Source: Acidobacteriota bacterium
GTDB lineage: Bacteria; Acidobacteriota; Vicinamibacteria; Vicinamibacterales; UBA2999
Direction: 5' to 3'
DNA length: 64,000 bases
Assembly: GCA_052389315.1 (NCBI GenBank)
Contig: JBQTIE010000295.1
Span: 5,255-69,254, forward strand
The notes under the pieces were generated by a model that was given only the letters and a program-made list of their open reading frames with translations, ran no database searches and was not told the origin of the DNA. Shown here one piece after another: positions 26,745-28,636 of the stretch (positions are counted from its first letter, which is position 1; the number at the start of each line of letters is the position of its first letter). A program made the translations under genes and the position numbers.

Positions 26745-28636
26745 TTAGCGGGTCTCGGCGAATTCGCCGTCGACCACTTCTGCATCCTTGACGTGCGCGC
26801 CTTGCGCAGCCGTCGATTGCGCCGAGGCCTGGTAGACGATGTCGGCCATCGCGTGCGAGGCCTGCTGCAGCTCGGTCACCGCCCCTCGGATCGCCGCGGC
26901 ATCGTCACCCTTGACGGTGCGCTTTGCGGCCTCGAGGGCCGCCTCGATGCGGGCCGCCTCGCTATCGGGCACGACGCTCCTGTGCTCGGTGAAGGTCTGT
27001 TCGACCGCGTGGATGAGCGCGTCTGCCTGGTTGCGCGCGTCGACGACGTCGCGCCGGGTCTGGTCCTCGGCGGCGTGCTGCTCGGCCTCGCGCACCATCC
27101 GGCTCACCTCGTCCTTGGACAGGCCGCTCGATCCGCTGATCGTGAGGGTCTGCGCCTTGCCGGTCGCGTTGTCCTTCGCGGCGACGTGAACGATGCCGTT
27201 GGCGTCGATGTCGAAGGTCACCTCGATCTGGGGCGTGCCGCGAGGCGCGGGCGGCAGTCCGGCGAGATGGAAGCGACCGAGCGACCGAGCGACCGGTTGT
27301 CACGCGCCATGGGCCGCTCGCGCTGCAGCACGTGGACTTCCACGCTCGTCTGCTGGTCCGCGGCCGTCGAGAAGACCTCGCTCTTCTTGGTCGGAATCGT
27401 CGTGTTGCGGGAAATCAGCGGCGTCATCACACCGCCCAGCGTCTCGATTCCGAGCGACAGCGGCGTGACATCGAGCAGCAGCACGTCCTTGACTTCGCCA
27501 GAGAGCACGCCCGCCTGGATCGCCGCCCCGACGGCGACGACTTCGTCCGGGTTCACCCCCTTGTGCGGCTCCTTGTTGAAGAACCGCTTGACCACTTCCT
27601 GCACGCGCGGCATGCGCGTCGATCCGCCGACCAGGACGACCTCGTCGACTTTGGCCGGATCCATTCCGGCATCCGCCAGGGCCTGCTCGAGAGGCCCGAT
27701 CGTCCGCTGCACGAGGTCCTCGACCAGCGCCTCGAGCGTGGCGCGCGAGAGCTTGATCGACAGATGCTTCGGGCCCGACGCATCGGCCGTGATGAACGGC
27801 AAGGCAATCTCGGTTTCCATCACCGACGACAGCTCGATCTTGCCTTTCTCGGACGCCTCTCTCAGCCGCTGCAGGGCCATCCGGTCCTTGCCGAGATCGA
27901 TGCCCTCGGCCTTCTTGAACTCCGCGATGAGCCACTCGACGATCTTCTGGTCGAAATCATCGCCGCCGAGGTGCGTGTCGCCGTTGGTGGCCTTGACTTC
28001 GACGACGCCCTCTCCCACTTCGAGCACCGAGATGTCGAAGGTACCGCCGCCCAGGTCGTAGACCGCGATGGTCTCGTCACCTTTCTTGTCGAGCCCATAG
28101 GCCAGCGCCGCGGCCGTGGGTTCATTCACGATCCGCAGCACGTTGAGGCCCGCGATACGGCCCGCGTCCTTGGTCGCCTGGCGCTGAGCGTCGTTGAAAT
28201 AGGCGGGAACCGTGATGACCGCGTCGGTCACCTTCTCACCGAGATAATCCTCCGCGGCCTGCTTCAGCTTCTGAAGGATCATCGCGGCGATCTCCGGCGC
28301 CGAGTACTGCTTGCCCCGCAGATCGACGCACACGTCTCTCTTGGCTGAGCTCGCAAGGCGATAGGACACGCGAGAGGCCTCGCCAGCCACCTCCTGGAAC
28401 TTGCGGCCCATGAAGCGCTTGATCGAGGACACGGTGTTGTCGGGGTTGGTCACGGCCTGTCGCTTGGCCACCTGACCGACCAACCGCTCGCCGTCCCTGG
28501 TGAACCCCACCACCGAGGGGGTCAGCCGCGAGCCCTCCTGGTTGACCAGCACTGTCGGCTGACCGTTCTCCATGACAGCCACGACAGAGTTGGTGGTGCC
28601 CAGGTCGATCCCAATGACTTTTCCTTTGGCCGCCAT
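26745..28636 (-). pseudogene. dnaK: molecular chaperone DnaK, interrupted by a +8 frameshift as sequenced
   Basis: ORF 27218..28636 carries the ATPase domain and the start of the substrate-binding domain ([27 protein letters not shown] ...DNRSLGR). ORF 26745..27221, in another frame, continues at [17 protein letters not shown]. The frames join if one 8-nt repeat unit at 27273..27294 is removed. Confidence 0.9.
27273..27294. repeat. 8-bp tandem repeat GCGACCGA, 2.75 copies, inside dnaK
   Basis: The plus strand reads GCGACCGA GCGACCGA GCGACC. The extra unit accounts exactly for the dnaK frameshift. Confidence 0.95.

Follow-up and report, generated by a model that had tools for sequence, protein, structure and literature searches.

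A dnaK gene that is read in two pieces raises the question of whether the organism carries a broken copy of its main Hsp70 chaperone or whether the break was introduced into the consensus sequence. The locus examined here lies within a 64-kb stretch of a MAG, the whole of which is referred to below as the window. A reading made from the DNA letters alone (the sequence-only reading) had proposed that the window holds one DnaK gene with a slipped-strand +8 lesion, and had rightly allowed for a real mutation, population heterogeneity, or an artefact as its source.

Two open reading frames encode one DnaK

The 5' fragment of the gene, ORF1 (27218..28636, minus strand), specifies 452 authentic residues ending in DNRSLGR, after which come 20 out-of-frame residues and a TGA stop codon. 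It contains the nucleotide-binding domain, the linker, and part of the substrate-binding beta domain. The 3' fragment, ORF2 (26745..27221, minus strand), supplies the remaining beta domain, the helical lid, and the tail. Its mechanical start is a GTG codon that corresponds to Val470 of the repaired protein and reads (V/M)TFDIDANG, with the same frame already open from 27299. Of the 599 positions of the Pfam HSP70 profile, 1-457 were matched in ORF1 (E = 8e-217) and 470-598 in ORF2. This division agrees with the earlier claim that the two adjacent minus-strand ORFs represent a single DnaK. A full-length profile match is thus reached by both ORFs together, and by no single uninterrupted frame, with the split at 27272..27295.

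Deletion of any one 8-nt unit from the repeat at the split fused ORF1 and ORF2 into a continuous frame with 627 sense codons before the stop, as expected from the frame of about 627 codons that had been obtained by hand, and brought back 17 conserved residues. The repaired protein aligned with residues 2-610 of E. coli DnaK and was gapless at the lesion. It was 80% identical over its full length to the best database matches, which include many DnaK proteins of 620-640 aa, all intact; the named best matches are from Vicinamibacterales, Acidobacteriota. Against genome contigs, identity was at most 71% among the matches listed.

The reading frame breaks after Arg452, the equivalent of a break after Q456 in E. 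coli DnaK. Residues F453-E469 (E. coli F457-E473) are absent from any product with a recognized start codon. In the beta sandwich, this segment would comprise a loop together with the strand end that precedes it and the strand start that follows. Because the beta sandwich would be interrupted and detached from the lid, the allele is probably null for chaperone function. By direct read, the TGA of ORF1 and the GTG of ORF2 overlap as GTGA (27218..27221, minus strand). No properly spaced Shine-Dalgarno sequence was found at this overlap (27221..27218), and reinitiation at the ORF2 GTG would therefore be inefficient. Even if made, a reinitiated fragment would still be without residues 453-469.

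The gene is the regular dnaK of its order

Gene order around dnaK was compared with that in the three closest relatives with long contigs (L081, L082, and L083). In all four, an M20 peptidase or IF-2B-like gene lies upstream and is followed by dnaK, hsp20, a gene for a holin_4_2-family membrane protein, two small genes, and gatA/gatC on the opposite strand. In the window, hsp20 (26259..26702, minus strand; NCBI MGQ0736075.1, 147 aa) is directly downstream of dnaK. Because this neighborhood matches that of the relatives, the split gene is the syntenic ortholog at the order's regular dnaK locus. A second Hsp20-family gene is located at 31136..31597 (plus strand) beside ymdB, and both Hsp20 genes also occur in L081 and L082. 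Unlike dnaK, both of these small heat-shock genes flanking the dnaK region are intact.

The near-consensus promoter of dnaK is also intact. A sigma-70-like element at 28697..28724 (minus strand) consists of TTGACA, 16 nt, and TG-TATCAT, with 11/12 matches. The AT-rich sequence around this element is conserved with relatives (window 28700..28760, minus strand, versus 9900..9960 in L081/L082). The -35 box of the dnaK promoter in L081 and L082 lies between the arms of an inverted repeat, ATATGAGT ... ACTCATAT. The half-sites loosely resemble an HspR site, and the repeat may be a putative heat-shock operator. In the window, the 3' arm of this inverted repeat is degenerate (AGCTAATA).

Among the ∼60 other window ORFs scanned, none matched HSP70, GrpE, or DnaJ, which bears out the earlier statement that the window holds no second dnaK, grpE, or dnaJ. 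Neither grpE nor dnaJ was found near dnaK in L081, L082, or L083. The absence of both beside dnaK is thus normal in this order and says nothing about a paralog. An ORF at 60222..62123 was considered as a second dnaK, since its 633 aa match the length of relatives' DnaK proteins, and was rejected with zero Pfam matches. It belongs to a region (56090..63715) with four large ORFs that have coding-type GC3 and no Pfam match at E <= 0.001. The other three are at 56090..57022 (plus strand, 310 aa), 57016..59757 (minus strand, 913 aa), and 62090..63715 (plus strand, 541 aa); the 633-aa ORF, on the plus strand, is not an Hsp70.

Two RNA genes were also located in the window. A 6S RNA gene (ssrS; Rfam RF00013, 80.9 bits, full length) at 51927..52114 (plus strand) lies directly 3' of zapB and zapA (51175..51854); an identical zapA-ssrS linkage is found in E. 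coli. A tRNA-Val(GAC) gene at 44307..44383 (plus strand) is immediately 5' of the thrS-infC-rplT-pheS-pheT cluster (44385..51122). Within this cluster, rpmI (ribosomal protein L35), between infC and rplT, was not picked up by the ORF filter, probably because it is short.

A third repeat unit breaks the frame

On the coding strand, 27272..27295 (minus) is a perfect tandem array of three CGGTCGCT units with zero mismatches by direct read. The plus strand at 27273..27294 reads GCGACCGAGCGACCGAGCGACC. Tandem Repeats Finder returned the same interval, 27272..27295, with period 8, 3.0 copies, and 100% matches. Both approaches therefore confirm the 8-bp tandem repeat that had been described at 27273..27294. 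One CGGTCGCT unit is surplus, and the resulting +8 nt moves the codons that follow into the -1 (or +2) frame relative to ORF1. Across the array, RSLGR is encoded in both reading frames, which is the footprint of a duplication.

Within the 64-kb window, the dnaK array is the sole perfect repeat with at least three copies at a period of 6-30, and such a repeat appeared in just 2.3% of 300 simulated 64-kb sequences (first-order Markov). The chance expectation for two-copy 8-mers is ∼1.9 per 64-kb window. Thus, a precursor with two units calls for no special explanation; the mutational or artefactual event is the gain of the third. We note that the window contains a second exact tandem duplication, a perfect 18-nt repeat with 2.4 copies (CCGACCCACCGGCCAGGC) at 53803..53846 (plus strand), in an ORF at 53283..53876. 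This repeat keeps the frame of the unannotated 197-aa ORF and contributes PPARPD-PPARPD-P to its C-terminal tail; it is tolerated there because its unit length is divisible by 3.

No CGGTCGCT repeat or insertion was present at the corresponding site in 83 relatives at the DNA level. All of these loci (83/83, from genome collections) were in frame and encoded N-[RK]-x-L-G-[RKQ]-F. The relatives' codons at the site are ACG CTx GGx CGG/AAG, and the closest relatives have the repeat-free CGG ACG CTx GGA CGG TTC. At the protein level, residues 445-475 were gapless in an alignment with 60 close homologs, and the repaired protein aligned end to end with 195 relatives, again gapless at the site. All listed homologs (120/120) are single proteins of 611-650 aa, and the split arrangement was seen in none. 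These gapless alignments with E. coli DnaK and the 195 relatives, together with the single ORFs of all relatives, fully support the proposal of one DnaK gene with a slipped-strand +8 lesion. A lineage-specific 3-aa insertion combined with a 1-nt deletion was rejected, as no relative has the insertion and the extra sequence exactly copies its neighbor.

The lesion appears to be young

No second lesion was found in dnaK, and GC3 is 0.86 in ORF1 and 0.90 in ORF2. Identity to relatives is 84% over residues 1-452 and 66-75% after residue 470, which parallels the relatives' own pattern (89% and 76-83%). The coding-type composition of both halves and the lack of a second lesion suggest that the duplication is young. 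Together, these features indicate either an artefact or an event that happened very recently.

The repaired protein has two substitutions, A265G and G439R (VLQGER to VLQRER), at positions that are invariant in 195 DnaK proteins, and two more, S117A and N278A, at near-invariant positions. These four departures from conserved sites are the most among the acidobacterial sequences (others have at most three); other phyla have up to nine. Judged from the alignment, they may weakly hint at relaxed constraint before the lesion, or the small excess could simply reflect a long branch.

The third unit was probably present in the sampled DNA

From the sequence comparisons, the lesion is probably a recent slipped-strand +8 duplication that is real in the sampled DNA and that makes the single syntenic dnaK a null allele. 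As we envisage it, the lineage would have acquired TCG (Ser) and GGT CGC, creating by chance a two-unit CGGTCGCT-CGGTCGCT. Replication slippage would then have expanded two units to three inside the dnaK of a Vicinamibacterales-like acidobacterium. The additional 8 nt throw the codons after Arg452 out of frame, and the ORF1 stop is reached 20 junk codons later. The three-unit allele would be either the sequenced strain's own or that of a variant strain whose sequence entered the MAG consensus.

Alternatively, the third unit may have come from sequencing, consensus polishing, or strain-mixture assembly, in which case the organism's dnaK would be intact with two units. We regard this explanation as possible but doubtful. 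The source is a MAG, a type of consensus that can contain errors from polishing or alleles of a minority strain, which counts against a real null. In addition, dnaK otherwise looks well conserved and well expressed, with no defect besides this one. Split genes do occur in relatives' long-read MAGs: in L083 (ENA ERZ25039555, contig_69952), an RND transporter (ACR_tran) at 18353..21512 is in three pieces of 130, 368, and 210 aa, and the same transporter is a single 1,046-aa protein in L081 and L082.

On the other side, the break in dnaK is the only one among the window's genes. Approximately 45 other window ORFs had Pfam matches covering the profiles essentially end to end. The intact genes include lpxB, lpxD, two M16 peptidase genes, a glutamine synthetase III gene, gatA/gatC, xseA/xseB, ymdB, yceG, ruvX, thrS, infC, rplT, pheS/pheT, zapA/zapB, and cstA. 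Because dnaK is the only visibly broken gene of the window, the consensus is not generally error-ridden. Short- and long-read errors concentrate in homopolymers and short-unit microsatellites, and adding exactly one 8-nt unit to a two-copy repeat would be an unusual platform error. An array of 16-24 nt is shorter than typical assembler k-mers and thus should not cause a graph loop. Because the 24-nt array is below k-mer length and the change is not a typical base-calling error, we infer that DNA molecules with three units were present in the sampled population. A real duplication is therefore favored over an artefact, given that an exact 8-nt gain in a 16-nt tract is an unusual error and that the rest of the window is clean.

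Public annotation and independent sequence data

The gene just upstream of dnaK encodes a protein 100% identical to NCBI MGQ0736076.1 (IF-2B-like), from a MAG with locus tags ACT4QD_, and the 114-aa holin-like protein is MGQ0736074.1. Across dnaK, the accessions are consecutive (MGQ0736075.1 for Hsp20, then MGQ0736076.1), with none between, and neither ORF1 nor ORF2 is present in the protein collection. It follows that the deposited annotation gives dnaK no protein; presumably, the gene has already been called a frameshifted pseudogene there.

The Logan assembly of SRR34758880 contains a 2,157-nt contig (L084) that equals window positions 27960..30116 save for one mismatch. At 28339 (contig position 1778), the minus strand reads AGA (Arg100) in the window and GGA (Gly100) in the contig. 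Codon 100 specifies Gly in 153/195 relatives and Arg in none. The public data thus include either one consensus error or two or more dnaK haplotypes, and this mismatch lends some weight to the artefact explanation, since the consensus is either not the only haplotype or not error-free. The contig ends 665 nt short of the repeat.

Searches directed at the repeat itself and at its neighbors returned no further alleles. A scan of JGI metagenomes with exact DNA patterns for the 2-, 3-, and 4-unit alleles gave 0 matches. In a gene-position index, the exact products of ORF1, ORF2, Hsp20 (two starts), and the holin-like gene (two starts) were not matched. Ten guessed N-terminally truncated products of the 2-unit and 3-unit alleles, as they might occur on a neighboring Logan contig, were not found, nor were full-length ORF1 and the repaired protein with Arg100 or Gly100 by exact look-up. 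A protein search with the C-terminal 175 residues gave a best match of 66% identity and no same-species protein. A literature search for Vicinamibacter and dnaK found nothing useful.

Switching and recoding are poorly supported

Could the split gene be a regulated device? One such possibility is a reversible contingency switch, in which the array alternates between 2 and 3 units, switching dnaK off and on again in part of the population. Tandem duplications can revert precisely by the slippage mechanism that made them, and the mismatch at codon 100 is compatible with at least two dnaK haplotypes in public data. We nevertheless consider such a switch very unlikely. The array has just three units, its two-unit precursor is expected by chance, and the metagenome scan for 2-, 3-, or 4-unit alleles was empty. 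The repeat is also absent from all relatives examined, so the array is not a conserved device. Contingency switches usually reside in surface or restriction-modification type genes, and dnaK is a housekeeping gene.

Recoding would require a -1 shift, or an 8-nt hop between identical codons of units 2 and 3, to give some full-length DnaK. The duplication inevitably provides matched take-off and landing codons 8 nt apart. A CGC-to-CGC hop with TTC read next would yield exactly wild-type DnaK, and a -1 shift within the array would add just three residues, as the ORF2 frame is open from 27299. No X-XXY-YYZ slippery heptamer was found in or after the array, however, and the predicted RNA fold is no stabler than shuffled sequence (z = -0.24). 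The take-off site is without a stop or rare codon, and the arrangement occurs in no relative. Programmed recoding was rejected because of the missing heptamer, the missing stable fold, and the lack of a homolog with this arrangement, and we give recoding the least credence of the explanations considered. As speculation, rare ribosomal hopping between codons 8 nt apart could yield wild-type DnaK. The split dnaK is probably a pseudogene or a loss-of-function variant, not a regulated device.

Implications of a possible natural dnaK null allele

If dnaK is single-copy, a null allele should be deleterious, which again counts against a real null. The sequence-only reading had gone further and called dnaK normally indispensable. 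This is too strong: E. coli remains viable without DnaK, whereas mycobacteria and Caulobacter require it (PMC4109909, PMC5760092). Because DnaK is not universally essential, a natural dnaK null allele is not impossible.

If the slipped-strand duplication is real, an uncultured acidobacterium from soil would naturally carry a loss-of-function version of the gene for its main Hsp70 chaperone, which would prompt one to ask whether the order can do without DnaK or has a backup for it. The most far-reaching form of this reading, in which the three-unit allele is real and in the majority, there is no second dnaK, and the lineage either lives without a functional Hsp70 or uses slippage or low-level hopping to make some DnaK, strikes us as highly improbable. 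The practical value of the locus lies mainly in curation, as a clean, easily repaired frameshift and as an indication that the MAG consensus may not be the sole dnaK haplotype in public data.

Comparison with known systems

By its full-length likeness and the gene order shared with relatives, the repaired product is a bacterial DnaK (Hsp70, PF00012); among solved structures, E. coli DnaK is the closest (e.g., 7krw and 2kho). The Ala265 and Gly439 positions are invariant in the 195 DnaK proteins compared, whereas the window gene is broken after Arg452 and carries A265G and G439R. As in phase-variation SSR loci, the repeat number toggles the frame, and slippage could in principle revert the dnaK array. 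Unlike those loci, the array has only three units, is unconserved, and lies in a housekeeping chaperone gene, and no copy-number polymorphism was seen in the metagenome scan.

MAG pseudogenes flagged by NCBI as "frameshifted" show the same gap-free flanking accessions around a gene without a protein, the flag being presumed for the gene described here. This dnaK frameshift would rank as an ordinary frameshift pseudogene call in a MAG, and it opens no new mechanism. Slipped-strand tandem-duplication frameshifts share with it the exact gain of one unit in a two-unit repeat whose unit length is not a multiple of 3. The dnaK lesion is a textbook instance of this well-known kind of mutation, with nothing to distinguish it from others.
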